A DNA stretch of 64,000 bases from Ignavibacteriales bacterium (lineage in GTDB: Bacteria > Bacillota > Clostridia > Acetivibrionales > UBA4821), in the NCBI GenBank assembly GCA_050260055.1, contig JBLNBO010000003.1, positions 38,629-102,628 on the forward strand, in the 5' to 3' direction. Made by a program: the position numbers and the translations under genes. Every line of letters begins with the position of its first letter. The first letter of the stretch is position 1. Below the pieces are notes generated by a model. That model was not told where the DNA came from and did no database searches. It worked only from the letters and a program-made list of their open reading frames with translations. Below are positions 33,489 through 64,000 of the stretch, in pieces.

Positions 33489-33565
<77 letters not shown>

Positions 33566-35826: not shown

Positions 35827-35932
35827 TCGGTCCACTCGTAGGGAGCATCCTCCCTTACGACGGGCCAAAACCGAACCCTGTCACCCTCCTCTGATGTATT
35901 CCTTTGAGGAATACTCTCGGGTAATTAAAACT

Positions 35933-36081: not shown

Positions 36082-36092
36082 ATAATTAATAT

Positions 36093-36539: not shown

Positions 36540-36668
36540 AACTCATCCTTAAGGATTTCATTCCTACAGCAAAGTTAATTCTACAACACTACTATTTAAG
36601 CTGTCAAGACCATAGGAAAACTCGCTTATTATAATATAACAAGCGAGTTTTCCTATGCTAATCTTACA

Positions 36669-37457: not shown

Positions 37458-37791
37458 TTTATTGTTTCAGTATTTACTAACTAATATTAGTTTCTACATA
37501 ATTTTTAAAAAAATGACACATTTAGAGTAAAAATGAAAGTAAATAAATTGAAAAGAGAAGTCTTATTAATAATTTAAATTTTAACGTATTGGAAAGATTA
37601 TCTAAAAGATGTATAATATTTATATATGTCTTTATATTATTTTTATCGTACAGCTCACACTTCACAAAATTTTGTAATGTTTTTCATCTTCATACGATTA
37701 AAGCTAGCTTTATTAAGATGGCCTTTATAGGTTCTTAGAACTTATAGTCGTTATATAAAAAAGATTCCCCAAAAAGAAAGGAGATAATAAA

Positions 37792-38145
37792 ATGTCAGAC
37801 AGTATCAAAATGATTAAGGAAACCAAAAAAGGGCTGAACCTATCTGAAGTTACCATTCCACGAGAATTAATTCCTCTCCAGGAACTTCTTGCAGCCAGAG
37901 CTCATGATGAATGGGTTTTAGAAATGCTCAAGCAGGAATGGAAGTTTGGGCCGGTCCATGATGAAAGTAAAAAGCAAAGCCCTCTTTTGATGAACTATAT
38001 CAGTCTTTCTGATGGAGAAAAACAAATCGCGCGGGATAAAGTTCATGATACCATTGCCGTAATGATAGTATATGGTTATGAAATTACTTCTGCGCCAGTT
38101 ACTTTTCTTGGCCCTCGGAGCTTGTATCCTTATCCGAAGAGCTGA
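37792..38145 (+). CDS. RyR-domain protein
   Basis: 117 aa. LAARAHDEWV....Q.W.FGP..DE..K..PLL..Y..LS..EK..(A)RD resembles the bacterial RyR repeat. Terminator hairpin at about 38151-38178. Confidence 0.6.
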   Translation: MSDSIKMIKETKKGLNLSEVTIPRELIPLQELLAARAHDEWVLEMLKQEWKFGPVHDESKKQSPLLMNYISLSDGEKQIARDKVHDTIAVMIVYGYEITSAPVTFLGPRSLYPYPKS

Positions 38146-38182
38146 AAAACAAAAACACCTTGCATCGCAAGGTGTTTTTGTT

Positions 38183-38258
38183 TGGTGCGCCTGAGACGAC
38201 TCGAACGTCCGGCCTGCGGTTTAGGAAACCGTTGCTCTATCCACTGAGCTACAGGCGC
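38183..38258 (-). tRNA. tRNA-Arg (anticodon CCT)
   Basis: The reverse complement reads GCGCCTGTAGCTCAGTGGATAGAGCAACGGTTTCCTAAACCGCAGGCCGGACGTTCGAGTCGTCTCAGGCGCACCA. Confidence 0.9.
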
Positions 38259-38413
38259 ATAGTTTAGCAAAAATTATTTTACATGGCTAGCCGCATTTTG
38301 TCAATCCTAACGCATTCGGTAAGCCCTTTTAAGTTTTAAGAATTAATTCTTGTCGACATTCTCCCGCTTTTATGGTAATATCTCTTATCATAATAACTTG
38401 ACAGGAGAAGAAA

Positions 38414-39004
38414 ATGCCATTTATTCCAGCATACATCTATAATAATAAGCTGTATCTTAATATAACAAACCTGTGTTCAAATAATTGCTCTTTCTGTATC
38501 AGGAACAGCTCTCAAGGTGTTGGCCATGATCTTGTGCTGGATAGGGAGCCGAGTTCAAGCGAAGTTCTGGAAGCAATTGAGAAGCTTCCGGTCTCTGAAG
38601 AGGTAACCTTTTGCGGCTTCGGCGAGCCCCTATTAAGACCAGAAACACTTATAGAGGTAGCAAAGGAAATAAAAAAGAGATACGGCTCAAAAATTAGAAT
38701 TAATACAAACGGCCTGGCTGAAAAAACCTTAAATAAAAAAATAATCCCTTCTCTTGAAGGAATCATTGATACTATATCTATTAGCCTTAATGCACATGAT
38801 GCAGAATCCTACTTTGAGGTTTGCAAGCCTAAAACCGGAACAGCTTCATATCAAGCAGTTATCGATTTCGCGCGTGAGAGCAAGAAATATATCCCTAATG
38901 TAGCGCTTTCGGTAGTAGATATTCCCGAAATTGATATAGAAAAGTGCAAGCAAATCGCACAAGAACTTGGCATTGAGCTTAGAATACGCCATCTTATTCC
39001 TTAA
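38414..39004 (+). CDS. small radical SAM protein (TatD-associated type)
   Basis: CSNNCSFC cluster motif near the N-terminus, a GFGEPL glycine-rich SAM motif, 196 aa. Confidence 0.75.
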   Translation: MPFIPAYIYNNKLYLNITNLCSNNCSFCIRNSSQGVGHDLVLDREPSSSEVLEAIEKLPVSEEVTFCGFGEPLLRPETLIEVAKEIKKRYGSKIRINTNGLAEKTLNKKIIPSLEGIIDTISISLNAHDAESYFEVCKPKTGTASYQAVIDFARESKKYIPNVALSVVDIPEIDIEKCKQIAQELGIELRIRHLIP

Positions 39005-39464
39005 TTATTCTTCCATTATGCCATTTAAAATGAGCAAGCAGGCTAGTTAAGCCAATTCCAATAAATCCTCCAAAAGTATCTATCAAAACATCTGTTACCT
39101 TAGCCGCTCTTCCCGGCACAAACGCCTGATGAATCTCGTCTGTTACTGCATAAATCAAGCAAATCAGTATGGAATATAGGAATAACTTCTTATCTTTAAT
39201 TCCAGTTGAAGATAAAGCTAAACATAATAACATCCCCAACACTGCATATTCCAAAGTATGCGCAATCTTTCTAATAAAGTAATTCCAACCGTTATTCAAA
39301 AATTCTCCCTTAAAGCCAAAGTTGTTAGCAATTCTGTTTATTTCTTGAATTACAAAAAGGCTTTGTGTATCTGACTGTATTGCAGGCTTACTGGAGAATT
39401 GAAATATTATGCTCATCCAGATTATTGCTAAAAACCAATAAATTATTACTCTTTTTAAGTCCAT
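38994..39464 (-). CDS. VanZ-family membrane protein
   Basis: 156 aa with 4 TM segments. The K..H..EY..LG and TDE.HQ.FVPGR motifs are present. Confidence 0.75.
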   Translation of the reverse strand: MDLKRVIIYWFLAIIWMSIIFQFSSKPAIQSDTQSLFVIQEINRIANNFGFKGEFLNNGWNYFIRKIAHTLEYAVLGMLLCLALSSTGIKDKKLFLYSILICLIYAVTDEIHQAFVPGRAAKVTDVLIDTFGGFIGIGLTSLLAHFKWHNGRIIKE

Positions 39465-39489
39465 TAAAAACTCTCCGTCTTTTTTAAGC

Positions 39490-40308
39490 TTAATTCTTTT
39501 TAAACAGCTTTTTGAAGAAACTATCTTTCACTTCTGTCTTTGATTTTTCGCCTTCTTGAGTATTAAGAGCTATTTCAGTATTAGCAAGATACGCAACCCT
39601 CTTTATTAGGTTCTGTATGGATGAATTGTATTTATTTTTTTGCTTTACAAATTCATTCGTCTTTTTTTGATTATAATAATCTCTCATGCTTGAAGAATAA
39701 ACAACACTTATGTGTTCTATCTGGTACATCTTTTTAATTTCGCCGGAATCCGGAAAAACATTATCTTCAAACATATTTATAACATTTATTTCTTTTACAT
39801 CCTTATGCTGATTGTAGGATTTGTACCATTCTAGTATGTAAGGATTCTGCGTCATAACATTTAGAAACACATCACAGTTAGAGTAAATAAGCCTGCTCAA
39901 TTCGCTCTGCGTTCCTGCTGTAGTATCCACAATTACAATATCAAAGGTTTTACGCGCAACCTCTATTATTTTTAAAACCTCTTCAGTATTCTTTTTAAGA
40001 TAATCTGAATTGTCTATACGGCTAGGATTTACAAGTCTTAAATTAGGCTTTAAAACTTCTGTATTTTCAATTAGAAGTTCTGATGTAAGCTCTCTGTTTC
40101 GCACTATAGAAATCAAATCATCAATACAATTTGAAGTTTTTCGGTCAACTAAGAACTCCATTTCTCCAAATAAATAATTAAAATCAAATATAAGTATGCT
40201 CAATTCCGTGTAATTAGCGAGAGTATATCCGATATTGTAAACAAGAGATGTTATTCCTTGTCCATGTTTGACACTGCCGACTCCAATAAACTTTCCCGTT
40301 TTCTCCAT
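39490..40308 (-). CDS. ParA/MinD-like P-loop protein with a degenerate Walker A
   Basis: The N-terminus GVGSVKHGQGITS aligns to the deviant Walker A xKGGxGK(T/S), but the GK Lys is replaced (G-I-T). A Walker B-like FDIVIVDT is present. Confidence 0.45.
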   Translation of the reverse strand: MEKTGKFIGVGSVKHGQGITSLVYNIGYTLANYTELSILIFDFNYLFGEMEFLVDRKTSNCIDDLISIVRNRELTSELLIENTEVLKPNLRLVNPSRIDNSDYLKKNTEEVLKIIEVARKTFDIVIVDTTAGTQSELSRLIYSNCDVFLNVMTQNPYILEWYKSYNQHKDVKEINVINMFEDNVFPDSGEIKKMYQIEHISVVYSSSMRDYYNQKKTNEFVKQKNKYNSSIQNLIKRVAYLANTEIALNTQEGEKSKTEVKDSFFKKLFKKN

Positions 40309-40436
40309 CTTGTACCTCCAGATTTTTTATACAAACTAATTATACCAAAAAATCAGATGTAAAGAACCTTTTTTTCAAATTCCCAAGGCTTTACTTATGG
40401 CTCTGCTTGTTGTATAATATGGTTTCAGTAAGCATA

Positions 40437-40513
40437 TGCGCCCATAGCTCAGCTGGATAGAGTGTTTGGCTACGAACCAAAAGGTCGGGGGTTCGAATCC
40501 CTCTGGGCGTGCC
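40437..40513 (+). tRNA. tRNA-Arg (anticodon ACG)
   Basis: GCGCCCATAGCTCAGCTGGATAGAGTGTTTGGCTACGAACCAAAAGGTCGGGGGTTCGAATCCCTCTGGGCGTGCCA. A hairpin+T-run terminator follows at about 40520-40562. Confidence 0.92.
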
Positions 40514-44998: not shown

Positions 44999-46450
44999 TT
45001 AATCTTTACACCTTACTTTTTTCAGCTTTTCTTTAGTTGCCTCTTCATCATTCACAGATATCTCAGGAAAATTCACAATCTCTCCAGAGGTATTTTTAAT
45101 CGCTTTTCTACATTCCTTTGAGAATTTAGAATCTTTTGTATCTTTTATATATTTAGCAACATTGAACAAATCAATTGTTCTGATTAGTGCTATATTTGAT
45201 CGTTTTGCCCCACTAAAGCACTTTTCAGTAAAAAACTCAGTTCTTTCCTCTGGTGACAAGAGCCTGTAGGCATTACCAAAAAGTACCCCTTTAGCATACT
45301 CATTAACTTCATCGCGCGCAAAATCTTCTTGAATATTTCTTTCAAGTTGGCTTAATTTTTCTATGTTTATAGCTTTATTATCCCTTCCCTCAGCTTCTCC
45401 AATGAATCGCCCTTCATCACCTACAAAAACCACATCAAATTCAGATTCATCATTTTGAAATCCTTCTGCTTTAAAACCCAATATTTCGAGTGCATGAATA
45501 ATTGATAGTTCAAGAGGTTTTCCCTGTTCATACAATAATCCCCGAAGTAAACCTTCCTTTTCAATCTCTACTTCGATATTAGTTTTTTGTTCCTTAAGCT
45601 TTTCAATTTTGTCATTAATAATAGATATCTTTTCAGTTAGCTTATTTTCAATACCAAGCCTAAATTTTCTGTCTTTTGCCCAGGCTGGTAATGGTGATAC
45701 TGCTGCTCCTTTTTTTATTGCCTTATCAATTTCAATAAGGCAAGATATATACTTTTTGCCAAAAGCTTTTCCTTCCTTCGTCCACTCCCACTCATCTTCA
45801 TCTTCATCAATATATTTAATGAATTTATTCTCGTCGTATTTAATGGGTGGAATAATTAAAATGGCCCCTTTTGAATTTGTAAATTTCGCTGCAACAGTTT
45901 TATTTCCTGATTTGGTAGTTAATAAACTGCTATTAAAATCTCCTTCAAGATAAATTTCAAACGGAGAATATTTCGAGAACCCACCCCAATATGTGGATAG
46001 AACACCAATATCTTTTGTAGCCCTAATTTCTTCTCCAGATACCGGAATAACTTTTCCAATTTTAACAGGAAATACATCATAACTATTCAAAGGTCGAACA
46101 ATATTTGTGTATACTGTTGATTTCCCCGTTCCAGAAGATTGTTTTTCTCCAGTGTAAACACAAACTTCCTCAGGTTTACTTAAAAATATGAATATAGTCT
46201 TCCCAGAATCAAAAGCCTCCTTCAACTCTCTTTGCCAGTGCAAAATAACTTCAGAACTTCTAAAAGAATATGTCTGATCTAACACAGGTTTTCCATTATA
46301 CCTTTCATTATAATGATAATTATAGGGAATACCCGGATTAAATATTATTATGTCCGCATCTAATAATGAACGATCAGATTCTAATGGAATGTATTCATCA
46401 TCATCACCTGGCAAAGAATAATTTACGCAAAAAATCTTTTTTTCTGACAC
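44999..46450 (-). CDS. hypothetical 483-aa protein: unknown N-domain, central coiled coil, C-terminal nuclease-like block
   Basis: Coiled coil KLTEKISIINDKIEKLKEQKTNIEVEIEKE. It is followed by GKPLELSIIHALEILGF......SEFDVVF....GRFIGEAEGRDNK, which resembles a PD-(D/E)xK-type core. That assignment is an inference. Confidence 0.55.
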   Translation of the reverse strand: MSEKKIFCVNYSLPGDDDEYIPLESDRSLLDADIIIFNPGIPYNYHYNERYNGKPVLDQTYSFRSSEVILHWQRELKEAFDSGKTIFIFLSKPEEVCVYTGEKQSSGTGKSTVYTNIVRPLNSYDVFPVKIGKVIPVSGEEIRATKDIGVLSTYWGGFSKYSPFEIYLEGDFNSSLLTTKSGNKTVAAKFTNSKGAILIIPPIKYDENKFIKYIDEDEDEWEWTKEGKAFGKKYISCLIEIDKAIKKGAAVSPLPAWAKDRKFRLGIENKLTEKISIINDKIEKLKEQKTNIEVEIEKEGLLRGLLYEQGKPLELSIIHALEILGFKAEGFQNDESEFDVVFVGDEGRFIGEAEGRDNKAINIEKLSQLERNIQEDFARDEVNEYAKGVLFGNAYRLLSPEERTEFFTEKCFSGAKRSNIALIRTIDLFNVAKYIKDTKDSKFSKECRKAIKNTSGEIVNFPEISVNDEEATKEKLKKVRCKD

Positions 46451-46805: not shown

Positions 46806-47621
46806 CTAAGCAATCCCCAGCTCTCTATGCATTCTTTCTATAAGCAGCTTACTTAAATAAGCATACCGTTGGGGAGTCAGATATTCCTCTATCTTCCCAA
46901 GAGCTTCTGCGAAACTCTTCCCCTGGACTTCGGCGACATAGCCGTATTCCGAATCCGTGAGCCTGAAAAAGACTCGGCCGTTTTCCATTCTCACCTTGAA
47001 CTTTTTGCCAGATAATACCCAGGCATCAAGGTAGCTTTCTGCCGCGGATGTTCCAGTAAGGTATACACATTCATACGGAAGCCCGCCTGCGAGATAATCG
47101 TTATTAGCTTCTACCAAAGCAGGACGAGCGCTGTAGGACTCGCCGTAACCGACCAGCGTTCCCCGGGAATTCTCAATTCGAATAACACGGAGGCCTCCTC
47201 CAGAGCGAAAAGCCCTGATGGTATTGCCATCTCGAAGGCTATCATTCAAGCCTTTGAATCCTCCCGCTTTCTTTCTCAGGGGAATAATCGACAGCAGATA
47301 CGATACGGTTTCAGAAGCAGAGAATTTTGTAATAATAGCTAAATTCCCTCCGGAGAAACTGATAATATCGCCTTGTGATAAGTCCACTGATAAATCCCCG
47401 CCGAAGCTGATTTGGATTAGGGCCTTTTCTTGAGATTCAGGCCGTAAGATTACTTCTCCGTTGTAATAAGTTTCGCAATCGCACTCTTTGTTCCACCAGT
47501 TTGCTTTGGTTTTGGCGTTAACTTTGCTGCGAATCTCGACTTCTCTACCAATAACCTGGTTTAGCAAATATCCTACCTGAGGCGCATTTTCTGGGGTCAA
47601 GATAACCTTTCTTAATTTCAT
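46806..47621 (-). CDS. hypothetical 271-aa protein, GC-rich relative to its neighbours
   Basis: Start set at MKLRKVIL (AGGAGGG upstream). Terminator hairpin AAAACCGTCCttgaaGGACGGTTTT at 46758-46786. Confidence 0.55.
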   Translation of the reverse strand: MKLRKVILTPENAPQVGYLLNQVIGREVEIRSKVNAKTKANWWNKECDCETYYNGEVILRPESQEKALIQISFGGDLSVDLSQGDIISFSGGNLAIITKFSASETVSYLLSIIPLRKKAGGFKGLNDSLRDGNTIRAFRSGGGLRVIRIENSRGTLVGYGESYSARPALVEANNDYLAGGLPYECVYLTGTSAAESYLDAWVLSGKKFKVRMENGRVFFRLTDSEYGYVAEVQGKSFAEALGKIEEYLTPQRYAYLSKLLIERMHRELGIA

Positions 47622-47860
47622 CCAAGAAACCCTCCTTTTTTTATCCTTTTTTATGAATATCCTGTTTGAGCAATAAGCACACAAAAGAAATTTTATATCT
47701 GACAATACTCAGCATCACTTCCTGCATGCACTAATATGAGCTGTTTGCTCTGGCAGCATATTTCATAAATTAAAAAAGAAAACTATTTATATGATACTAC
47801 GGCTGGAATAAGATTACAATAACTATTTCTATAGCCCAAAAAGCCCGGAAAGTCTAATCT

Positions 47861-48607: not shown

Positions 48608-49046
48608 TGAATTTAAACAAAAAGTTATAGAATTCCTTTCTGAAGATGCGGTTTTGCCTAATGACCTTAAGTCTCATGTAAATGAATGTAAAACATGTAA
48701 AGAATTTTTGGTAGACTCAAAATTATTGCTTAAATCCTTTAAGGATAAAAGCTGCGATGTAAGTAATGATATGCAAGAAGTAGAAACCTTTATTACATCA
48801 ATTAATCCTTTATTAAATAAGAAATCTCTTCAAATAAAGGAAACAAGGCAAACCAGGAAAGAAAGTATTGCTTTAGCTTTGATAACAATCTTCTTCATCG
48901 GATTAATCCTCTTTGCACTTTATTCATACTTAATAAATGGCAGCTTATTTTTGATAGCCCTTTTAGCAGTATACACACTTTTCTCATCAATAATATCTTT
49001 AATTTTTTTACCAACAATAAGAAAGTATAGGAGGAATGTTTTATGA
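48597..49046 (+). CDS. anti-sigma factor (zf-HC2) with C-terminal TM segments
   Basis: It overlaps the sigma gene by 11 nt. N-terminal H-x3-C-x2-C (HVNECKTCKEF) and two TM segments. Confidence 0.7.
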   Translation: MKCDEFKQKVIEFLSEDAVLPNDLKSHVNECKTCKEFLVDSKLLLKSFKDKSCDVSNDMQEVETFITSINPLLNKKSLQIKETRQTRKESIALALITIFFIGLILFALYSYLINGSLFLIALLAVYTLFSSIISLIFLPTIRKYRRNVL

Positions 49047-50059
49047 TTAAAAAGATAGGTTCATTCTTTGGAAAAGCCTCTAAAATAATAAGTATAATTT
49101 TTTTGGTAATTGCTCTGGTTGGGCTTGCAGGAATGCTGAAAATGAATGCTCTGATTAATGAAGAAATGCCCCAAGAAAACAGTCAGGTTTATAAGACCCT
49201 GATTAAATATCTTGATAATGCAGAAACAAACGGATTTGAAAAGATTAAGCCAATTCCTCTTTTAAGTCAACTGGATTCCGTAGGAATAGTAATTACCGAT
49301 CAGGCAGGCAATATTGTACATAAAACATTTCCGGATAAACCTGACTCTTTGTTTTCAGGAATGACTAAGTTTAATGTCTTTTCAGATTTAGGGGGATTTA
49401 CCTATATTCTTGATCAGAATGATAATTTAAAATGCTTATTCTTTGGGAAATTCGGAAAAAGCAACATACGGAATCAGCAGAAATTATATGAACTTGGGAA
49501 CCCTGAATGGAATAACTTTGTTCTTTCTTCTCCAAATAATATTGGAATGAAGCTAACACGTTTAAATAAAGCCTATGTTAATTCGGACGGCAGTTTTTCC
49601 CTCTCCCGCGATGAAAAAATGAAAAATCCAGTTGCTTATCCATGCGAAACTATAATAGTGAAGTCAAGCGCAGGAAAGTTCAATCTCTACTTTTTCCGGA
49701 TGCCGCATTTTGGCTTGTTTGAGATGATAAACGAAGGTTATTTTGCAGAATTTATTATTGACCCATTTTCATTCTTCCAAGAAAATGAATTTAGAGAAAT
49801 TGTTCTTTCAGACCATGTCAGCATCGTAACAAAACACCAGGTGTATAGAGATATCTTTTTCATAGCTATGATAATTGCTTTACTTATATCCTTAATCTTT
49901 GTTGTAGTATGGGTATTCATAGATGCAAAAACAAGAAGTCTCCCCAGGCTTCCATGGGCATTACTGGTTCTTCTTACAAATCTAATCGGCATAATAATCT
50001 ATCTGATCATAAGACATCCGGGAAGCTCTTCGGCCATTCCTGAAACAAAAAATGTTTAA
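49043..50059 (+). CDS. membrane protein with a C-terminal PLD-nuclease-N-like (PLDc_N) TM hairpin
   Basis: ATGA overlap with the anti-sigma gene. C-terminal WVFIDAKTRSLPRLPWALLVLLTNLIGIIIYLIIR. Confidence 0.55.
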   Translation: MIKKIGSFFGKASKIISIIFLVIALVGLAGMLKMNALINEEMPQENSQVYKTLIKYLDNAETNGFEKIKPIPLLSQLDSVGIVITDQAGNIVHKTFPDKPDSLFSGMTKFNVFSDLGGFTYILDQNDNLKCLFFGKFGKSNIRNQQKLYELGNPEWNNFVLSSPNNIGMKLTRLNKAYVNSDGSFSLSRDEKMKNPVAYPCETIIVKSSAGKFNLYFFRMPHFGLFEMINEGYFAEFIIDPFSFFQENEFREIVLSDHVSIVTKHQVYRDIFFIAMIIALLISLIFVVVWVFIDAKTRSLPRLPWALLVLLTNLIGIIIYLIIRHPGSSSAIPETKNV

Positions 50060-52942: not shown

Positions 52943-53053
52943 ATAAATAATATCTTTTATACCCATAGGGCGCCAACCCACTAAGTCTATTATTGTATAT
53001 TTTAAATCACTCTTGGAGAAACTTTTAAGAATTATTATCCAGGAGTGATTTTT

Positions 53054-53611
53054 TTGAATTATGAATTAGTTGATGAATTCAGGCTTAACTGGGTTATTAC
53101 AGTAATTTTGAATATTGCCGCAGGTATAGTATTTGCAGCCGGCTTTTACGGTTTTTTGTATTTATATTTTACATTTTCAACAGATATTCTCGGTGAGAAA
53201 CTGCTAGCAAATTCTAATCTGTGGATAGCATATGCGGCAGTGCTTTTTCAGGCAGTGCTTCATGAATACAGTCATGGAATCGGTTATAGGCTAAGCGGCG
53301 GCAAGGTAAAATACGGAATCAAATGGTTGTGCCCTTATTGTATGGAAAAGTCGGGCCTGTATTATCCAACAAACAATTTTATTTTAACCCTCATACTTCC
53401 ATTGATAACCGGAACAATTGCGGCAGTATTGGCTTTCATTGCTTTCCCCCAATATCTTTACTATATCGTCATCTGTGTATTAACAAACATCTCCGGTGCG
53501 GCCGGAGATATTATGATGCTGTTTTTTATAATATTAAAAAGGAACAGAGGCCAGTATATTAAAGATGAGCCTTACGGGTTCAGTATGTATAGAAGGGTTA
53601 TCCTTGAATAA
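53054..53611 (+). CDS. DUF3267-type putative membrane zincin peptidase
   Basis: TM segments and an HEYSH (HExxH) motif. Start is uncertain: TTG 53054 lies 8 nt after AGGAG, while the track uses GTG 53045. Confidence 0.6.
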   Translation: MNYELVDEFRLNWVITVILNIAAGIVFAAGFYGFLYLYFTFSTDILGEKLLANSNLWIAYAAVLFQAVLHEYSHGIGYRLSGGKVKYGIKWLCPYCMEKSGLYYPTNNFILTLILPLITGTIAAVLAFIAFPQYLYYIVICVLTNISGAAGDIMMLFFIILKRNRGQYIKDEPYGFSMYRRVILE

Positions 53612-53644: not shown

Positions 53645-54217
53645 CTATTTTTCTCCCTTCTCTTTCATATAGTATGTTTCAACCTTCATGTTCAGCGACC
53701 ATTCTTCAACGCTAATTATCCTTAGTTCTCCCTGTGTTATTTTCATTTTAATTGGACTTGCCTTTAAGTAATTTATAAAATCAATTATATCCTGTTTTTT
53801 TCCTGTAACATTAACTCTTATAGGTTGCTTGCCATATTTCTTGCCGGCCTCTGTTTCCTTACCCTGAGCTTCCAGATTTGAGATTTGTAAATTGTGAGCT
53901 TTTACATAGTAGTAGAGCTCCAGATTTAATTGATTTATTTGATTTGCATTGGGAATTTGTTTGCCAATATCCTTTAACTCATTTTCCATCTTTGATAGTT
54001 TATCAGTGTTTCCTTTAATGTCTTTTCTTATCATATCAAGCTCTGAAAGCTTTTTTGCCTTTTCTTCGATTTTTACTTGAAAGGTATCTATTTTAATAAC
54101 CTGATTGCTAAAGACATAGGTAAAGTATGCGTACCCGATTCCAGATACGACAAGAATACCAAATATTAATTTTTGCACCCTATTCTTGTCCAATATACTT
54201 CCCCCAAATTCCTTCAA
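53645..54217 (-). CDS. PilO-like type IV pilus assembly protein (second copy)
   Basis: N-terminal TM, a coiled coil and a C-terminal alpha/beta domain, located after pilM-pilN. Confidence 0.55.
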   Translation of the reverse strand: MKEFGGSILDKNRVQKLIFGILVVSGIGYAYFTYVFSNQVIKIDTFQVKIEEKAKKLSELDMIRKDIKGNTDKLSKMENELKDIGKQIPNANQINQLNLELYYYVKAHNLQISNLEAQGKETEAGKKYGKQPIRVNVTGKKQDIIDFINYLKASPIKMKITQGELRIISVEEWSLNMKVETYYMKEKGEK

Positions 54218-54234: not shown

Positions 54235-54762
54235 TTAATCTTTCATACTGTACAAGTCTACTTCTATTCTCCCTGAGTAATTTTTTGGATTTGCCTGAAT
54301 ATAAAAGCTCTTGATTACAAGCTTTCTATCAAACCCTTTAAAATAATTTATTGCTGATTTAATCTCATCAAGAGTACCGCTTAACTGAATTGAGAATCTA
54401 GTAATATTAAATTTTTCATTTTCAGTAGGGAAGCTCATATCAACATTTTCAGCCTTGATATTGCCTTCTTTTATCAGCTTATACATTTCCATAGTGATAT
54501 TCCCGCTTTCACTTTTGGAAGGGATTATCTGATTAAGCTGTTTTATCTGCTTCTCATAATCATTAATCATTCTTTTTGCTTCTGTTTTCTTTTCGCTCCA
54601 GACTTCTAACTTTTTGGCCTGCTCATATTTGAATTTATATTCATGGTTAAGAACCTCTATCCTCTCATTTGAAATAGAAAGGTAGTATTCATAAACTCCA
54701 TAGCCGACTCCCAAAAAAACTATTACGGCAAAAATTATCTTCTGGATTTTTTCCTTATTCAT
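54235..54762 (-). CDS. pilO: PilO-like type IV pilus assembly protein
   Basis: Same architecture as the neighbouring copy, directly downstream of pilN. Confidence 0.6.
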   Translation of the reverse strand: MNKEKIQKIIFAVIVFLGVGYGVYEYYLSISNERIEVLNHEYKFKYEQAKKLEVWSEKKTEAKRMINDYEKQIKQLNQIIPSKSESGNITMEMYKLIKEGNIKAENVDMSFPTENEKFNITRFSIQLSGTLDEIKSAINYFKGFDRKLVIKSFYIQANPKNYSGRIEVDLYSMKD

Positions 54763-54789: not shown

Positions 54790-55359
54790 CTAGTTACTGC
54801 TAAGCTTTAATTTCCTAAGCTTGAGTTTAAAACTAATCTCTGTTTTCTTATCAGCAATAGGAATGGTAGGCATATCAACCTGCTCAAAAATATTAAGCTT
54901 ATTTAAGTTGTCGACAAGTGCATTTGCTTCAATAGGATTATTGATAATATAAGACACCGATACCTCGAGTTTGTCATTAAATCCGATGTATGTTATTTCG
55001 ACTCCTTGAGGTACTGCCGAAGTTAGTTTATCTATAAGGGGAACTATATCAAATTCATTCTTGCTTATTTCCTCAATTATTTTCTTTTTGTTTTCAAGTT
55101 TTTCTTTTGCGGCATTTAGATTATTATAAAGGTCTTGAATATCTTTGAAGAATTCAATTTCTCTATCCAGATTATCGATTCTCTCTTGAAGAGAAAATAT
55201 TTTGAGTTCTGGAACATAATAAATACCAAAAGAAGTAAGGGTAAAGATAGCTGTTGCAAATGCAACTAAAAACATTCTTTGTACAGCCTTCCTTTGTTTA
55301 ATCACAAAATCAGGCACAAAATTTATATTCTTATTAACTTGCTTCTTTTTCTGCTTCAT
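54790..55359 (-). CDS. pilN: PilN-like type IV pilus assembly protein
   Basis: The N-terminal INF(V)P motif precedes a TM segment and coiled coil. ATG 55359 forms an ATGA overlap with the pilM stop. Confidence 0.7.
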   Translation of the reverse strand: MKQKKKQVNKNINFVPDFVIKQRKAVQRMFLVAFATAIFTLTSFGIYYVPELKIFSLQERIDNLDREIEFFKDIQDLYNNLNAAKEKLENKKKIIEEISKNEFDIVPLIDKLTSAVPQGVEITYIGFNDKLEVSVSYIINNPIEANALVDNLNKLNIFEQVDMPTIPIADKKTEISFKLKLRKLKLSSN

Positions 55360-56348
55360 TTGTCCGACCCTCCCATCAGCAAACCAAAACAACCGAAGTA
55401 TCTTTCAGGATGGAACTTGCTTTTCATCTTAAGAGGCATTGTAGTTGTCAAAAAGCTCTTAGAAAACTCTGTATTGCCGGGCCTAACCTTTATACCAAGA
55501 TTGTCTTGTATATACTCTGCGGCTTGGCTTAACATAGCCCCTCTTCCAATAATATATACCTCTTCCAGGCTTTTCCCGTGATGCCTTGTAGAAAAGAAGT
55601 TAAGATAGTTTTTCAATGTATCAACGGCAGATGTAAAATCTTCTCCAAGCTCTTCTATCTGAAGATTATTTAAGTGCACTTGCTCATCTATGCCGTCTTC
55701 CGGCTTTGGTATGGCAAAGCTGATTATTGAGTTTATAAACAAACTTTTACCTTCAAGCATCAAAAATTCAGTCTGATCATATGTCATATCCATTATTGCA
55801 CAATCATTGCCAACCAGCTTTATAAATAAATCGCTTACTGCATCAGAGTATATGCTTATAATTTTGGGCTTTAGCTTGCATTTTAAAAATATCTCTGCGT
55901 AATATTCTACAGTGCTCTTTGGAATTGCCACCAACAAAACAATGTAGTATGCCTTCTCATCCTTTTCGTTAATTTCCTGAATTTTATAATCAAAAAGATA
56001 TTCCTCTGGCTTAATTGGGAAATACTGTTTTATGCTAAGCTTCATAAAATTTTTCAAATCTTTAAATTCCATATTAGGGAGTTTGACCACACGGGTAATG
56101 ATTCCTTTGTCTGAAATGCAAAGCTTGTACTTGTTTTCTTTAAGACCGTTGTTTTTTAAAGCTTTACGAACAAGACCCGCCACAGCTTCCCTGCCTGCAG
56201 GGTCCTTGGACCTTGCAAATTCTTCAGGCACATCCAGCTGTACAGCTTTTGCTACTTCTATCTTATTTTTCTTTTTGTTATATCTGCATTCAGTAAACTT
56301 ATATGTGTTTTCCTGTATACTGATGCACAATTCCCATGAACCTGACAT
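55356..56348 (-). CDS. pilM: type IV pilus assembly ATPase-fold protein PilM
   Basis: 330 aa with an actin-like ATPase fold pattern, located upstream of pilN. Confidence 0.85.
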   Translation of the reverse strand: MSGSWELCISIQENTYKFTECRYNKKKNKIEVAKAVQLDVPEEFARSKDPAGREAVAGLVRKALKNNGLKENKYKLCISDKGIITRVVKLPNMEFKDLKNFMKLSIKQYFPIKPEEYLFDYKIQEINEKDEKAYYIVLLVAIPKSTVEYYAEIFLKCKLKPKIISIYSDAVSDLFIKLVGNDCAIMDMTYDQTEFLMLEGKSLFINSIISFAIPKPEDGIDEQVHLNNLQIEELGEDFTSAVDTLKNYLNFFSTRHHGKSLEEVYIIGRGAMLSQAAEYIQDNLGIKVRPGNTEFSKSFLTTTMPLKMKSKFHPERYFGCFGLLMGGSDK

Positions 56349-56363: not shown

Positions 56364-56780
56364 TTAGTTGATTTCCTTCCAGTATTGTATGTTAAAGTTA
56401 GTATCTTGTTTGATTACCTCTGCTTCAATTTTTCTTTTTGTAGCCCTAAATTTTCCCTCTGATGTTATTTTGTAAGAAGGAACATTTTTTTCTATGACAA
56501 CAGTAATACTGTGTTCTTCAGGATATTGCGTTTCAAAAGGCTTATTCAAGGTAAAACCCTCGGGAATATGGTCTGGATCGCTTGCCTTTATTATGGCTTC
56601 TGCTCTTTCAATTCCACTTTCAGCAATATAATAAGCCTTCATGCGGTTTTCAACTGATTGATGGATTTTTCTCTCAGAGCTGATAAGGGCATATACAGAA
56701 GAATACAGTATGCCAATAATGGCTACGATTATTACGACAAATAAAATTATTGCCCCTTCTTGCCCTTTCTTTTCTTTCAC
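56364..56780 (-). CDS. PilX-like minor pilin / pilus assembly protein
   Basis: An N-terminal hydrophobic helix lacks the canonical G-F-T-L-x-E motif. The A.Y(I)AE.GIE motif is common in PilX-like proteins. Confidence 0.5.
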   Translation of the reverse strand: MKEKKGQEGAIILFVVIIVAIIGILYSSVYALISSERKIHQSVENRMKAYYIAESGIERAEAIIKASDPDHIPEGFTLNKPFETQYPEEHSITVVIEKNVPSYKITSEGKFRATKRKIEAEVIKQDTNFNIQYWKEIN

Positions 56781-57387: not shown

Positions 57388-60300
57388 TTAATAAGTCACT
57401 TTCAACATTGGAATATCCGGTCCTTCCTTACTGCTAAACATAACAATCTTGTTTGATGTCCTGGAATAAATATTTAGACTGAGAGTTTTATCAGAATACT
57501 CCTGCTGAGCATATGATGTCACATCTGCAGTACATTGAGCATATGTCGAGGTAACCGAAAATGTGTTTTGAACCCACCAATCGCTAGACGGAGAGTTGCT
57601 TTGGGTTATTGTATATTCGCTCCATGAATCATCAGTTACTTTATAAACATACATGGTTATGTTATTGCCGCCAGCGGTATTTTTTCCTTTTAATATCAGC
57701 TGAGCGCTCACCGGAGAAGAAGGCAGCCCTGTCATGTCAAACTTTATATATGTTTCTCTAAGTTTGTCTGAAGTTGTTGAAAAAGAGTAACAATCATAAA
57801 GGTTCGGGTCTGTTCCATAATTTATGTCCACATACGCGCCGCCTCTAAAGTATGCATCATCAGTAGGGTAAAATATCCTGGTTGTACGAGAAGCAGCCGG
57901 GATTACACAGACTTCATTTGAATTAGTACTCTCTCCTTTTGCATTTACTGCACTAACTACATAGTAATACTTTGTATCATTTATAAGATTAATATCCTGA
58001 TAGGATGTTGATGTTATCCCCGAAACCCTTGTAGTATAAGGCCCTTTAGGATAACTGCTTACTTTGAGCTTGTAGCTTACCGCCCCATCTGAAGCAGTCC
58101 AGGTCAGATTTGCCTTTGTATTAATACCTGTACCGACAAGATTCTGCGGCACCTTAGGCACTCCTTCAACCATCTTGACTATTAACTCCGGCTTGTTTGA
58201 TGCGGCTTCTTTACTGTTGATTGAAACTGTATTCGAAGAGACATTAAGCCCAATACTTATCAGGCCTCCTGCTGTATCTATCTGCTCGGCAATATAATTT
58301 GAAACATCAATCTCGTAATACTGCTGGGTAGTATTCATATTGACGGTACCAACTTCACTTTCAAGGATAGGCGCATTGTTCCATGTAATTGACCCCATGC
58401 CGCTTTCAATCCAAGTTGTATTTGAAACCTTATATGCCTTTAAATCTATGGAACTTGCAGAGGTCTTTCCATATACTCTTAATTTCGCAGAAACCGGAGT
58501 ATTATTTGTATAGCCTGCTAGGCTGAACCTTAGATATGTCTTTTTATTATTCACTCCGTCATTAACAACCCCAAGAACTGTATTGGTTCCATAGTTGGTA
58601 CTTGGATAATAACTTTCAACTCTGGCATCTGCCGCAGGATTTTTGGTTACGGTTATAGCTGTGTTAGGTGTCGCAGATGCCTGATTGGAATCGGCACTTT
58701 CTCCGGCAGCATTTATAGCAGAAACAACATAATAATATTCAGTTCCATTTGTCACACTGTTATCAACATAAGCTGCTGACGTTAGTCCTGAAGCCAGAAC
58801 AGCATATGGCCCTCCATCAGTTGTGCTTCTCTTGATTGTATAACTATCCACCTGCGAAGATGCACTCCATGATAATGTTACTTGTGCATTATCAGGAACA
58901 GCTTTTAGGTCCAGCGGAGCATCTGGCTTTTGCAGAGTCTTTAAAATAATAAGCTCCGGCTTATTTGATATACTCTCTTTACTGTTAAAAGAGAGCAGCT
59001 TGGCTGAATCTTTGCCTGCATATGCAACGCTCGCAATTTTAGTTCCAGCCATTATAGTTTTAATATAATCAGTTACATTTATCTCTTTATACGATTGAGT
59101 ATTATCAACTTGTACAGAACCAATTTCTTCTCCTAATGCAGGCGCATTGCTGTAAGTCATTGTGTTTTCTTCCCAATCTGAATCATCAACTTGATATAAA
59201 CCCATATTAACTGTAGTTGAATCGTCCAGATTGCTTCCATAAACTCTTAAGCGTGCACTTATAATTTCTCCATTCAGATTTGAAAGGTTATATCTTAAAT
59301 AGGCGATTCTTCTTTCGTTCGAGCCTTCAATATCATTTTTAATTTCCAACTTTGCATTACTGCCATAATTATTTGCCGAATATGTTCCTCCGCGGATATA
59401 AGTATCTGCATTCGAGTTTAACGTAACTGTCACACGTTTGTCCGGCGTTGTACTTGCTTCGTTTGAATCGAGGCCTTCTCCTGTAGAGCTTAAAGCAGAA
59501 ACCACATAATAATAGGTTGTCCCATTAGTCACTGTAGAATCTGTATAGCTTACACTTGTAACATTTGCTATTGTTGTATACGGCCCGCCTGATGTTAGGC
59601 TTCTTTTTACATTATAAGTCTCAGCACCTATAACCGTATCCCAGCTAAGTATTGCTTTGCAGTCATCAGGCTCAGCTATAAGATTTTGCGGCGCTGGCGG
59701 AGCAGCAGCCGGTGTCCAGACGACTTCGAGCAGAGGCCTGTTGCTTGAAGGATGACGGCTAACTGCTGTAACTGTTGTGCTGTTTGGAGAAGTAAATAAA
59801 AATCCGGCAGTCTGATCCCCTGCAAGCTCTGTTTTACAGTAGTTTGTTACATTCAGCTCTACATATCTATTAGTTGAATTGAAAGACAATGTTCCAAGAC
59901 TGCTTCCTGCTGCTGGAGCATCTGACCATGTAATCCCGGTTTCGGTCCAACCATCATCGGGAACCGTAGATACTTCAGAACTCAGCGTTCCATTAGCAGA
60001 ACCATATATCCTGAGTTTTGCAGAAATAAGCGTTCCTTGAATTGATGAAAGATCAAACTTTAGGTAAGAGTTATATTTTTGACTGCTGTTATTTCCATTT
60101 CTAGCAATAAGTTCATTTGCTGTTCCATAATTGGAAAAAGAATAAAACAGTCCTCCTCTGACATAAGCATCTGCAGTAGGCTCCAGTCCTGTTGTGTTTA
60201 TTATTATAATTGCATTTGCCTCATTGGATTCAGGCCCGCTGCCATTATCGTTTACTGCCCAGACAATATAGTAATAGCGGATTCCGGCCTCAACATCTGT

Positions 60301-60849
60301 ATCTGTATACATATCAGAGGTGATTCCGCTTGCTATCGCGGTAAAATTGGTTTCGCTTTCTGCTCTTCTTTTTACGCTGTATGAACTTGCATTAATTGCC
60401 CTTGACCAATTAAGGGTGATATTCTGAGCCGAAGGTACAGCAGTTAAATTCGTAGTCTCACTTGGAACATCATTTGATAATAAAAGAATATATGTAACAA
60501 AAACAAGGTCCTGCATCCCAAGCCGGGTATTTTTGGGATGAACCGTTACTGTTACCTTTTTTAGATTGGTTGTAAGGTAAGGGTCTTCTCCCGAATCATC
60601 AACCTCAACAGAATAGCCATTTATGCTGCTGCTTATAAGGCCTGTTTTGTATCTTTCAATGGCTTCCTGCGCAGCATAAAGCATCTTGTCTTTTTCATTC
60701 ATTTCATTTATGGTTTTTGTAGTAAGGCTTGAATCATAGGCAATATATGCCATACAAATACCAAGGATGGAGATTGAAATCATTATCTCCACCAATGAAA
60801 TACCGTTATTCTTTTTAAAAAACTTTCTAATACGTGCAGCTAATTCCAA
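57388..60849 (-). CDS. giant pseudopilin: prepilin-like N-terminus + 4 x (FN3 + DNRLRE-type beta-sandwich) modules
   Basis: The N-terminus NNGISLVEIMISISILGI is a class III signal-like helix. It is followed by four alternating FN3 domains (L.W....A.SY.(V/I)KR......Y..(I/L)......Y.D..V.NGT.YYYVVSA(V/I)N..GES..SN) and domains of about 170 aa (AD(A/T)Y(V/I)RGG....NYG....L........(R/K).(S/A/T)YL(K/R)F.L........A.LR(I/V)YG ... W.E..(I/M)T(W/Y)(S/N)NAP ... NKPELI). Confidence 0.8.
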   Translation of the reverse strand: MELAARIRKFFKKNNGISLVEIMISISILGICMAYIAYDSSLTTKTINEMNEKDKMLYAAQEAIERYKTGLISSSINGYSVEVDDSGEDPYLTTNLKKVTVTVHPKNTRLGMQDLVFVTYILLLSNDVPSETTNLTAVPSAQNITLNWSRAINASSYSVKRRAESETNFTAIASGITSDMYTDTDVEAGIRYYYIVWAVNDNGSGPESNEANAIIIINTTGLEPTADAYVRGGLFYSFSNYGTANELIARNGNNSSQKYNSYLKFDLSSIQGTLISAKLRIYGSANGTLSSEVSTVPDDGWTETGITWSDAPAAGSSLGTLSFNSTNRYVELNVTNYCKTELAGDQTAGFLFTSPNSTTVTAVSRHPSSNRPLLEVVWTPAAAPPAPQNLIAEPDDCKAILSWDTVIGAETYNVKRSLTSGGPYTTIANVTSVSYTDSTVTNGTTYYYVVSALSSTGEGLDSNEASTTPDKRVTVTLNSNADTYIRGGTYSANNYGSNAKLEIKNDIEGSNERRIAYLRYNLSNLNGEIISARLRVYGSNLDDSTTVNMGLYQVDDSDWEENTMTYSNAPALGEEIGSVQVDNTQSYKEINVTDYIKTIMAGTKIASVAYAGKDSAKLLSFNSKESISNKPELIILKTLQKPDAPLDLKAVPDNAQVTLSWSASSQVDSYTIKRSTTDGGPYAVLASGLTSAAYVDNSVTNGTEYYYVVSAINAAGESADSNQASATPNTAITVTKNPAADARVESYYPSTNYGTNTVLGVVNDGVNNKKTYLRFSLAGYTNNTPVSAKLRVYGKTSASSIDLKAYKVSNTTWIESGMGSITWNNAPILESEVGTVNMNTTQQYYEIDVSNYIAEQIDTAGGLISIGLNVSSNTVSINSKEAASNKPELIVKMVEGVPKVPQNLVGTGINTKANLTWTASDGAVSYKLKVSSYPKGPYTTRVSGITSTSYQDINLINDTKYYYVVSAVNAKGESTNSNEVCVIPAASRTTRIFYPTDDAYFRGGAYVDINYGTDPNLYDCYSFSTTSDKLRETYIKFDMTGLPSSPVSAQLILKGKNTAGGNNITMYVYKVTDDSWSEYTITQSNSPSSDWWVQNTFSVTSTYAQCTADVTSYAQQEYSDKTLSLNIYSRTSNKIVMFSSKEGPDIPMLKVTY

Positions 60850-61349
60850 CCAAATGACACCTCTCCCGTTTGAGGAGTAATCTTTATATAAATATATACG
60901 TTTGATGCCTTAAGATAAATTGTTGTCAAATCAGTAAAAGCAGTTGTCTCATCTGGCTCAAACGGCTTACCTGTACTGTCAAAAACAAATCCTTCTCCTA
61001 CAGAATTTCCTGATGCATCAACTATTTTTTCACAGGTAATTCCTCCGCTGAAATCAACTCTTTTTATCGTTTTTAAGGTTCTTCCCGTTTCTGAAACTAT
61101 TATTTGTCTGATTTCATACCAGTTTTCATCAAAATTAAAAAATACTATGTGGTTATCTTTTGTGCTTATGCTAAGCTCCTGGGCATAACGGATATCAGAA
61201 ACAAGGTTTCTTGCTGATGTGTATAATTTAAAGTCGTTTTTTGAGCCTCCCATCCTTGGTGCGGCAACAACAATAACAATTCCCAAGATGGCTATAACTA
61301 TCATTATTTCCAGAAGCGTAAAACCTTTATTTTTCATATTGCCCCTCAC
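60840..61349 (-). CDS. GspH/FimT-like minor pilin
   Basis: KGFTLLEIMIVIAILGI prepilin motif, then the ...L..D(I)R.A(Q)..(S)I pattern of GspH/FimT. Confidence 0.75.
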   Translation of the reverse strand: MRGNMKNKGFTLLEIMIVIAILGIVIVVAAPRMGGSKNDFKLYTSARNLVSDIRYAQELSISTKDNHIVFFNFDENWYEIRQIIVSETGRTLKTIKRVDFSGGITCEKIVDASGNSVGEGFVFDSTGKPFEPDETTAFTDLTTIYLKASNVYIYIKITPQTGEVSFGWN

Positions 61350-61351: not shown

Positions 61352-62569
61352 TTACTTACCTCCCGATAAAGACCCAATCATATTAAACATTGGAAGCATT
61401 ACCGAAAGAAGGATTGCCGCAATAACTCCACCCATTATAAGAGTAAACATCGGTTCAAGCAAAGAAATTGCTTTTGCTATTCCCGAATCAAATTTTTCAT
61501 CATAATAATCCGCTAAATCATTCATAGAATCTGCCAGAGTTCCTGTTTCTTCGCTGATTGAAATAATATTTGTTACCATATTGTCAAAAAACCCGATTTG
61601 CTCAAAGCTTGCCGAAAGGGACTCACCCTTATTTATTCTGTCTTTTGCTTCAGAAATTCCTTTGCTGAGCTTCTCATTCCCTACTACCTTTTCAAGCGTA
61701 TCCATAATTATAAGCATAGGCAAACCCGTGTTTATGAGCATGCCCATTGTTCTTGCCACCCTTGCAGTTAAAAAGTCGACTGCAACCCTTGAAATCATAG
61801 GGGTTTTAAACATAAGGTATGTTTTACATCGCACCTTGAATTGATAAGGAACAGCTTTAATGTATAAAACAACTAAAGCCGCAATAGAAAGTAATACTGC
61901 AGCCAGATTGTTTGCCACAAAATGCGCGGTTCCCATAAGAATTTTTGTAAGAAGCGGGAGTTCTACCCCATTCTCAGAAATTATTCCAACAAGCTCCGGA
62001 AGAACGAAAAAAGTGAAGATGATAATTACAGCAGTAGCGATACATACAAGGATGCATGGATAAATAAGTGCCGAAGAAATCTTCTTTTTGGTTCTGGTTT
62101 CTTTCTCATAATACTCAGCCATTTTCTTAAAAATAGAATCAAGATTTCCGCTGACTTCTCCAACCTGAACCATGTTGACAAGAAGCATCGGAAGCCTAAA
62201 CCCGCAGTTTTTGAATGCATCCGTAAGGGAGCTTCCTTTCTGGATGCTTATATTTAGGCTGTCGGCAAGCTCTTTTACCTTCTTACTGTCTGTCTGGTCT
62301 CTAACCATTTGGAGCCCTTTTAATATGCTGATTCCAGACTTTGTTATTATGCTGAGCTGATTGCAAAATGCCGCTATCTCAGATGATGAAATATTCCTGA
62401 TTTCCTGTTTGCTTGATCTGCTTTTTGCAAATAGGTCTGCCTTTATTTTTATCAGCTTTTGTCCTTCTGCTGCAATCAATTGTCTTACCTCTTCAGGACT
62501 TTCTGCATCAATACTGTCGTTTATTATCTCATTATGCTCGTTCAATGCCGAATACTTGTATACTGGCAT
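61352..62569 (-). CDS. pilC: type IV pilus platform protein PilC (GspF family)
   Basis: 405 aa with two GspF repeats and three TM segments. Confidence 0.93.
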   Translation of the reverse strand: MPVYKYSALNEHNEIINDSIDAESPEEVRQLIAAEGQKLIKIKADLFAKSRSSKQEIRNISSSEIAAFCNQLSIITKSGISILKGLQMVRDQTDSKKVKELADSLNISIQKGSSLTDAFKNCGFRLPMLLVNMVQVGEVSGNLDSIFKKMAEYYEKETRTKKKISSALIYPCILVCIATAVIIIFTFFVLPELVGIISENGVELPLLTKILMGTAHFVANNLAAVLLSIAALVVLYIKAVPYQFKVRCKTYLMFKTPMISRVAVDFLTARVARTMGMLINTGLPMLIIMDTLEKVVGNEKLSKGISEAKDRINKGESLSASFEQIGFFDNMVTNIISISEETGTLADSMNDLADYYDEKFDSGIAKAISLLEPMFTLIMGGVIAAILLSVMLPMFNMIGSLSGGK

Positions 62570-62660: not shown

Positions 62661-63206
62661 TTAGTTTGTTGTTACTGCTTTATTTGCAAGTACAGTTCCA
62701 TTAACATCATGCGGAGTAAATGTGACTCTTAGCTTGCCACTAGCATCAACAAAAGCATCATACTCAACTACTCCTGAGAAATTAGGATCAGTTGTACCAG
62801 CCATTGTTATTAACTGTACTGCAGCAGTCATATCAGCTGTTGCGTCTGATTCATAAAGAAAAGCTCTGTTACCTGCTGTAAAAGCTGGAGTATCAGGGTC
62901 TGTAGCAGTATCAGCTGCAGCTGTTCCAACAAATGCCACCTTGGTTAATGGATTTTTCATTCCATTTGCACGTAATCTTGAAACAAGTGCGAGTTCAATA
63001 TCGTCACATCCTGCTTCAGTTCCCTCATATGATTCAATCAATGCTTCTGCTATAGAAGCTGCCATTCTAACGTTTGTATCAAGACCTGCTTCTCTTGCCT
63101 GGTTCTTTACTCCTGCAACTCTTGGTATAAGCACGAGTGCAAGAATCCCGATAATAGCTATAGCTATCATTAATTCAATAAGTGTAAAACCTTTATTATT
63201 CTTCAA
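62661..63206 (-). CDS. pilA: major type IV pilin PilA
   Basis: MKNNKGFTLIELMIAIAIIGILA prepilin signal with Gly-1/Phe+1/Glu+5. TTG start 8 nt after AAAGGAGG. Confidence 0.9.
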   Translation of the reverse strand: MKNNKGFTLIELMIAIAIIGILALVLIPRVAGVKNQAREAGLDTNVRMAASIAEALIESYEGTEAGCDDIELALVSRLRANGMKNPLTKVAFVGTAAADTATDPDTPAFTAGNRAFLYESDATADMTAAVQLITMAGTTDPNFSGVVEYDAFVDASGKLRVTFTPHDVNGTVLANKAVTTN

Positions 63207-63452: not shown

Positions 63453-64000
63453 TTAAGCATAAGTTATCCTTATCATTTCTTCAATCGTGGTTACTCCCTC
63501 GAGTATCATATGTTTACAGCTTTCTCTCAAGGTAACCATCCCCTCTGTTACCGCTTGGTCTCTGAGGTTCTCTGTAGGCGTCCTCTGGTCAATAAGAAGC
63601 CTCAAATCCTTGGTTATTTCCATAATTTCAAATATGGCCGTCCTGCCTTTATATCCGGAATGTCCGCATAATCTGCATCCTGCTCCTTTATAAATCTTTC
63701 TTTCATCATTCAATTCTATACCTAAAAGAGCTAAATCCCTGTCATCAGGAATGTGCTCTTTTTTACAGTGGGGGCAAATCTTTCTGACCAACCTTTGTGC
63801 AATTATTCCGATTAAGCTTGAAGATACCAAAAACGGCTCAATGCCCATATCTGTAAGCCTTGAGATTACACCTGGAGCATCGTTTGTGTGGAGGGTGCTC
63901 AAAACAAGGTGTCCTGTTAAAGCCGCACGTATTGAAATCTCGGCGGTTTCCGAGTCTCTTATTTCTCCCACCATTACTATATCAGGGTCTTGCCTTAGTA
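63453..64000 (-). CDS. pilB: type IV pilus assembly ATPase PilB (GspE family), C-terminal part; continues beyond the window
   Basis: The His box region [11 protein letters not shown], the tetracysteine motif CPHCK...[12 protein letters not shown], and a frame that stays open to base 64000. Confidence 0.9.

Follow-up and report, generated by a model that had tools for sequence, protein, structure and literature searches.

Type IV pilins that carry additional, non-pilus domains have been described as modular pilins. More than 1,200 such proteins in 264 architectures were found in InterPro, including some with FN3 and carbohydrate-binding cargo; Dataset S1 of that survey contains 12 FN3-bearing pilins (IPR012902-IPR003961) and the carbohydrate-binding families PF13385, PF13620 and PA14, and the largest multi-domain pilin cited has 860 residues (Raynaud et al., 2021; PMC8179133). 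In Streptococcus sanguinis, the modular pilins PilB (vWA) and PilC (lectin) are located at the pilus tip, and glycan binding has been demonstrated for PilC (PMC8179133, PMC9934059); PilC has been modelled at the pilus tip with its GspI-like partner PilA (PMC9934059). Type IV pili have also been implicated in the attachment of Ruminococcus, Fibrobacter and Caldicellulosiruptor to polysaccharide (for example PMC3672088; bioRxiv 10.1101/614800). Here we describe a gene for a 1153 amino acid (aa) modular minor pilin, encoded in a type IV pilus operon on a 64,000-nucleotide stretch of contig JBLNBO010000003.1 (the window, that is, the whole stretch of DNA that was analysed). On balance, we favour the reading that this protein is a tip-located, I-type modular minor pilin that would act as a tetravalent polysaccharide adhesin.

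The open reading frame (ORF) is on the minus strand, and its features are as follows.

57388..60849, minus strand: whole gene, a 1153-aa modular minor pilin with prepilin signal, pilin module and four FN3 + CBM96 units
60802..60849, minus strand: leader peptide, aa 1-16 (MELAARIRKFFKKNNG), ending in Gly-1, with the predicted prepilin-peptidase cut before Ile17 (N_methyl match, conservation, ribosome-binding site)
60475..60801, minus strand: pilin module, aa 17 to ~125, probably I-type (ComGE/GspI-like) by best match and gene position (AlphaFold2 model, ComGE match, alignments)
60214..60459, minus strand: FN3 domain 1, aa 131-212 (phmmer, Pfam fn3)
59722..60195, minus strand: CBM96/DNRLRE module 1, aa 219-376 (Pfam, NCBIfam, phmmer, module comparison)
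59452..59694, minus strand: FN3 domain 2, aa 386-466, whose nearest solved relative is the Fn3 domain of 3mpc/5g56 (phmmer)
58945..59430, minus strand: CBM96/DNRLRE module 2, aa 474-635, the module that fits the Pfam model and PDB 7VBO best
58675..58920, minus strand: FN3 domain 3, aa 644-725 (Pfam, phmmer)
58177..58653, minus strand: CBM96/DNRLRE module 3, aa 733-891 (Pfam, NCBIfam, phmmer, module comparison)
57907..58152, minus strand: FN3 domain 4, aa 900-981 (phmmer)
57397..57882, minus strand: CBM96/DNRLRE module 4, aa 990-1151, carrying SDKLRETYIKFD (Pfam, NCBIfam, module comparison)

Translation is predicted to begin at a TTG codon, with a GGAGAGGTG ribosome-binding site 8 nucleotides (nt) upstream. 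The stop of the upstream GspH/ComGD-like gene (60840-61349) overlaps this start by 10 nt, an arrangement from which the 1153-aa gene is predicted to be translationally coupled within the pilus operon. A PilW/ComGF-like gene begins 24 nt downstream. The initial annotation, made from the sequence letters, had placed the ORF at these positions, with the 10-nt overlap and between a GspH-like and a PilW-like gene, all of which was borne out; it did not state the strand. It had also divided most of the protein into four tandem units of FN3 plus a DNRLRE-like domain, and this division was recovered here. Pfam fn3 recognized three of the FN3 stretches, and an internal phmmer comparison identified all four (independent E-values 8e-17 to 1e-50), recovered all four CBM96 copies and fixed the domain map. 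The sequence motif singled out earlier in one copy is located in module 4.

The linker between pilin module and cargo comprises ~6-10 residues (SNDVPSETTN), so that the protein has the pilin motif, non-pilus domains and short linker by which Raynaud et al. (2021) define modular pilins. No catalytic domain was detected in it by a Pfam scan. At ~120 kDa the protein is ten times the size of a normal pilin, and its cargo accounts for ~1000 aa in eight domains. As a rough estimate from typical domain sizes, the extended FN3-CBM96 string could measure a few tens of nanometres.

The N-terminus carries a class III (prepilin) signal, KKNNG/ISLVE, with a short basic leader, Gly-1, Glu+5 and a hydrophobic alpha1 helix; the residues are MELAARIRKFFKKNNG before the predicted cut and ISLVEIMISISILGI after it. 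Pfam N_methyl matched this region with 22.9 bits (cutoff 21.2). Glu+5 (E21, in ISLVE) is invariant among the aligned orthologues, and Gly-1 is present in nine of ten, the tenth having Ala. When N-terminal profiles were compared to PDB, only bona fide pilins were matched (Geobacter PilA-N, Myxococcus xanthus PilA, MshA, TcpA and GspG). Thus, the prepilin-like character proposed in the initial annotation is upheld, as is the type IV pilus context, given a conserved minor-pilin block accompanied by PilB, PilC and PilMNO. The term "pseudopilin" used there is incorrect, as the PilM/N/O genes and the major pilin indicate a type IV pilus and not a type II secretion system.

An internal methionine, Met23 (MISISILG...; window 60781-60849), was used as the start by gene callers in several orthologues. 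Four of these (P0001, P0002, P0004 and P0014) start at Met23 and so lack the leader and Glu+5, and have no pilin annotation. The only named orthologue entry is "DNRLRE domain-containing protein". Most database copies of the family have this mis-start, and surveys based on the pilin motif will miss them.

The repeated domain of ~160 aa is, as judged from profile matches, a bona fide member of the DNRLRE/CBM96 family, as had been suspected from its motifs. PF24517 (CBM96) matched four stretches with 462 bits (E 7.9e-140, cutoff 26) and NF033679 (DNRLRE_dom) also matched four, with 272 bits (E 1.3e-81, cutoff 34), E-values that are not attributable to chance. Module 2 matched the founding CBM96 structure 7VBO (7vbo_A) directly at E 1.7e-9 and a DNRLRE protein, 8wab_A, at E 7.3e-8. 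The four modules are 29-38% identical to one another. Across orthologues, CBM96 modules at the same position share 42-53% identity, and modules at different positions share 28-35%. Given this difference, we infer that the four-unit layout predates the family and that each position has been kept by selection. Recent tandem amplification was rejected as the origin of the four units, as same-position modules of different orthologues are closer than the modules within one protein.

Around 14 full-length orthologues (1131-1168 aa, 44-100% identity) were identified by protein search, and two further loci, truncated by contig ends, came from a scan of Joint Genome Institute data. In total these make about 16 orthologues (44-81% identity), which keep the signal, the four-unit architecture and the operon link. 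In four loci (L001, L002, L006 and L007) the synteny is identical, with the orthologue between the H-type gene and the J- and K-type genes.

AlphaFold2 modelling of the pilin module (predicted local distance difference test score 75-78) yielded a helix at residues 17-69, that is, a 53-residue alpha1, followed by strands at 79-88, 96-104 and 115-122. An exhaustive hidden Markov model (HMM) search of 1.84 billion cluster representatives with this module (E up to 0.001) retrieved 79 proteins, in which the family itself was represented by one full-length cluster representative and one fragment. The other matches were mostly stand-alone pilins of 103-141 aa. We aligned 19 stand-alone pilins, and they run from the leader to the last strand, ending where the pilin module ends. 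Because of this end-to-end alignment, the FN3-CBM96 string appears to have been grafted onto the C-terminus of an intact pilin.

For the ten nearest stand-alone relatives tested, ComGE was the best NCBIfam match in every case, commonly followed by GspI, XpsI or PilV, with all these scores below the curated cutoffs. T4P_ComGE was also the only pilin-class match of the 1153-aa protein (E 1.2e-7, model positions 1-72 of 83). Moreover, in each of five loci with H, J and K genes (the window, L001, L002, L006 and L005), the protein is the sole candidate for the I subunit. From the best sequence match, the topology and this exclusive candidacy, the pilin module is probably the I-type subunit of a tip-priming H-I-J-K complex. 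The core minor pilins GspI, PilV and ComGE share with it a size of ~110 aa, the topology of alpha1 plus three strands, a gene located between H and J/K, and the best family match. They differ in that scores fall under the curated cutoffs and no structural match is significant, and known I subunits lack a C-terminal extension such as that of the 1153-aa protein.

One of the HMM search matches, P0133 (345 aa), has an I-like pilin module of the same kind fused to ricin-type beta-trefoil (ricin-B) lectin domains. As this case is independent, lectin cargo arose more than once on I-like carriers.

The system shares much with PilC (Ig-like plus ConA-like lectin) and PilB of S. sanguinis: a monoderm type IV pilus, a class III signal, a small pilin module, a short linker and non-pilus adhesive modules. 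However, the I-like PilA of S. sanguinis is not modular, whereas here the carrier module itself is the apparent I subunit. The cargo comprises one or two domains in S. sanguinis versus eight here (four FN3 and four CBM96, ~1000 aa), the binding modules belong to a different family, and binding has been demonstrated for PilC but is predicted from sequence for the protein described here. The design is likewise shared with the catalogue of Raynaud et al. (2021), although the family is longer (1131-1168 versus 860 aa), and no DNRLRE/CBM96 architecture occurs in the available part of the text of its Dataset S1. The pili of Ruminococcus, Fibrobacter and Caldicellulosiruptor are also pili of anaerobic polymer degraders for which attachment to insoluble polysaccharide has been proposed. 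In those cellulolytic bacteria, either the major pilin or separate proteins are held responsible for binding. In contrast, a dedicated array of carbohydrate-binding modules is fused to a minor pilin in the 1153-aa protein.

The initial annotation had noted no described example of this architecture. This holds for the CBM96 architecture and does not hold for the design, given that modular pilins, including FN3- and lectin-bearing ones, have already been described (PMC8179133, PMC9934059). What is new is the CBM96 cargo, its arrangement as a tetravalent eight-domain array (~120 kDa), and a carrier that is the apparent I subunit; the design principle was already known. The protein is an extreme case for the modular-pilin concept in both its mass and its eight cargo domains.

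The founding CBM96 member, TM6-N4 of the alginate lyase Dp0100 from Defluviitalea phaphyphila (7VBO), binds alginate in a groove formed with K10, K22, K25, K27, K31, R36 and Y159 (PMC9971899). The modules described here belong to the same domain family and keep its hydrophobic core (V7, F42 and W84), with the central Arg36 also retained in modules 2 and 4. However, TM6-N4 sits on a catalytic lyase, whereas the 1153-aa protein is without a catalytic domain and its modules do not conserve the lysine-lined alginate groove.

In combination, these results suggest the following mechanism. The 16-residue leader would be removed by a prepilin peptidase encoded elsewhere in the genome, and the pilin module would then act as the I subunit (GspI/PilV/ComGE-type) of the H-I-J-K priming complex. 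With such a role the protein would be built in first and would thus be located at or near the pilus tip, from which the cargo, a string of ~1000 residues made up of the four FN3 domains as spacers and the four CBM96 beta-sandwiches, may project. The four units of spacer plus carbohydrate-binding module, as recognized in the sequence, most likely form a four-handed hook that would let the pilus grab polysaccharide. The string would serve as a tetravalent, avidity-driven adhesin for a polysaccharide, for example a glycan from the cell wall or matrix of plants or microbes in anoxic soil, with a ligand that by the available criteria would not be alginate-like. As the modules are old and separately conserved at each position, they may recognize different glycan epitopes.

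Several observations weigh against this reading, some of them concerning the pilin module and its setting. The T4P_ComGE match falls under the NCBI cutoff (31.8 versus 49 bits). A Foldseek search of the pilin module against PDB gave no significant match (EpsI 2ret_C had template modelling scores of 0.42/0.46 and E 0.8), and a Thermus competence pilin was matched with a probability of 0.8 over just 48 columns. PDB profile searches with the module matched only the alpha1N of full-length pilins, with no I-specific match. The orthologue sequences are all metagenomic, and in L005 the orthologue is found outside the H-J interval, behind pilO at the end of the operon. Neither a prepilin peptidase (A24) nor PilT or a second PilB/PilT-like ATPase was found in the 64-kb window by tblastn; in L006 and L007, a Peptidase_A24 gene occurs ~6.6 kb downstream. 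Alternatively, the protein could be a membrane-anchored surface binding protein and not a pilus subunit, with the class III signal and alpha1 used for export and anchoring, or for a short stub, and the string crossing the wall to reach glycans. In this it would be comparable to those archaeal sugar-binding proteins that have class III signals. For a pilin, the eight-domain extension of ~1000 aa is very long, and both the L005 gene, away from the minor-pilin block, and the absence of a significant fold match to a specific minor-pilin class would fit an anchor. However, the pilin module is complete rather than a helix alone and can be aligned with small minor pilins over its whole length, five loci with H, J and K offer no I-type candidate other than this protein, its gene is predicted to be coupled to the H gene through the 10-nt overlap, and modular pilins have been found experimentally in pili (PMC8179133). 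We consider a mere membrane anchor to be quite unlikely.

Other observations on the unfavourable side concern polysaccharide as the ligand of the tip-located adhesin. Proteins with DNRLRE domains range from lyases, S-layer proteins and disaggregatases to a PHB (polyhydroxybutyrate) depolymerase (PMC9971899, PMC12278694), and with this range glycan binding is not guaranteed. No carbohydrate-active enzyme (CAZyme) or sugar-uptake genes were identified by Pfam among the 20 larger ORFs of the window, so these provide no substrate pointer. The protein could be displayed on the pilus and yet bind the cell's own matrix, its S-layer or other cells, with a function in aggregation, biofilm formation or matrix-triggered retraction, as in the recognition of exopolysaccharide (EPS) by type IV pili (T4P) of Myxococcus, instead of capturing nutrient polysaccharide. 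The first DNRLRE domains to be described came from archaeal disaggregatases and from S-layer proteins (PMC9971899, PMC2447325), the T4P of M. xanthus are known to recognize EPS (PMC12691611), and an SLH-domain protein is encoded near the pilus locus in L001; the lack of CAZyme genes among the ORFs scanned points the same way. However, the single characterized family member binds a dietary polysaccharide (PMC9971899), and the other CBM96 carriers among the homologue matches include GH98-like and galactose-oxidase-like proteins. Sortilin/BNR, metallophosphoesterase and disaggregatase-like proteins are also among these carriers; the contexts are mixed, and thus no ligand can be inferred from them. 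Binding to the cell's own matrix or surface is in our view improbable but deserves to be taken seriously.

Alginate itself would be the ligand if the specificity had been carried over from the founding CBM96, whose binding of internal alginate chains is the only one characterized in the family (PMC9971899). We mapped the TM6-N4 residues onto the modules with a chain offset of 16, checked on twelve residues, for a set that excludes Y159. Of the six basic binding residues, K10, K22, K25 and K31 are conserved in none of the four module classes, where Gly, Ala, Glu, Thr, aromatic residues or gaps stand in their place. This loss also counts against the favoured reading, as does the partial retention of the other two: K27 is kept only in module 2 (with Arg in 7 of 13 module-1 copies), and R36 persists in modules 2 and 4 but has given way to Tyr in module 1 and mostly to Lys in module 3. 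The module isoelectric points (4.6-5.9) are not decisive, as 7VBO also has a net negative charge over its aligned part. Because the TM6-N4 binding residues are poorly conserved, alginate specificity is not supported; at least one relative comes from a paddy-soil study and not from a marine or brown-algal setting. An alginate-specific pilus adhesin thus seems very improbable.

If the favoured reading of a tip-located polysaccharide adhesin holds, an obligatory pilus-priming subunit can be converted into a large multivalent carbohydrate-binding head, and CBM96/DNRLRE modules work outside enzymes, as adhesins. The protein would then be a concrete candidate for polymer attachment by uncultured anaerobic soil Clostridia. 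A bolder version, which we regard as speculative and rather doubtful, is a retractable tetravalent "glycan fishing rod". In this version the four old CBM96 modules on the I-type priming subunit would have distinct specificities, so that every pilus would receive a composite polysaccharide-recognition head, and retraction would either draw the cell onto complex polysaccharide of plant or microbial origin or pull strands off it. If true, this would represent a non-enzymatic, pilus-borne use of a CAZy carbohydrate-binding module family and a route of substrate capture for uncultured anaerobic Clostridia.

In L005, the H-type pilin P0051 (1306-3375; 689 aa, GspH-like) has an N_methyl motif, around five FN3 repeats recognized by eye and one CBM96 domain. 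The L005 pilus would therefore carry two CBM96-bearing pilins.

The source metagenome-assembled genome (MAG) is labelled "Ignavibacteriales", a label that we reject. LonB of the window matched the spore_lonB equivalog model above its cutoff (857 versus 723 bits), and the pilus operon, which lacks a secretin gene, is Gram-positive in type. From these two features we infer that the host is a spore-forming, Clostridia-like member of the Bacillota. The "Deltaproteobacteria bacterium" label of a related MAG is probably also wrong. Relative L004 is labelled "Clostridia bacterium", and relative L003 is from PRJNA951521, a study of methanogenesis in paddy soil. We describe the host as an uncultured, Clostridia-like anaerobic soil bacterium.

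On the minus strand, the genes occur in the order PilB, major pilin, PilC, H-like pilin, the 1153-aa gene, J-like pilin, K-like pilin, PilM, PilN, PilO and PilO. The genes around the 1153-aa gene are as follows.

63453..63974, minus strand: PilB assembly ATPase, C-terminal part, the gene running towards or over the window end
62661..63206, minus strand: major pilin candidate, 181 aa, KNNKG/FTLIE
61352..62569, minus strand: PilC platform protein (T2SSF), 405 aa
60840..61349, minus strand: H-type minor pilin, GspH/ComGD-like, 169 aa
56845..57363, minus strand: J-type minor pilin, ComGF/PRK10557-like, 172 aa as listed
56364..56780, minus strand: K-type minor pilin, weak GspK/ComGG match, 138 aa, without Glu+5
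55356-56348, minus strand: PilM
54790-55392, minus strand: PilN
54235-54762 and 53645-54217, minus strand: PilO paralogues

No secretin gene follows the PilO genes of this type IV pilus operon, which belongs to the Gram-positive type. The absence of Glu+5 is typical of K-type subunits. With 138 aa, the K-type pilin falls far short of GspK, whose model has 307 positions.

The pilus operon is immediately followed, on the opposite strand, by a 188-aa gene (53045-53611) without a family match at E <= 1e-5. In relative L002, the same post-operon position is occupied by a 181-aa DUF3267 gene (17112-17657), which we assume to correspond to it. The rest of the window encodes Lon, LonB, ClpX, trigger factor, chemotaxis genes, a RecT gene and four tRNAs. 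ORFs at 13686-15767, 44999-46450, 46806-47705 and 49043-50059 (693, 483, 299 and 338 aa, respectively) had no Pfam or NCBIfam match at E <= 1e-5. A protein with FxLYD domains in three stretches (32368-33417) and a 622-aa protein with WG-repeats and DUF3298 (17095-18963) are probably envelope-associated. The four tRNA genes (33492-33565, 35996-36081, 38186-38258 and 40438-40511) are mixed with the RecT-family gene (36669-37457) and small ORFs, and this region (33492-40511) may be an integrated phage-like element.

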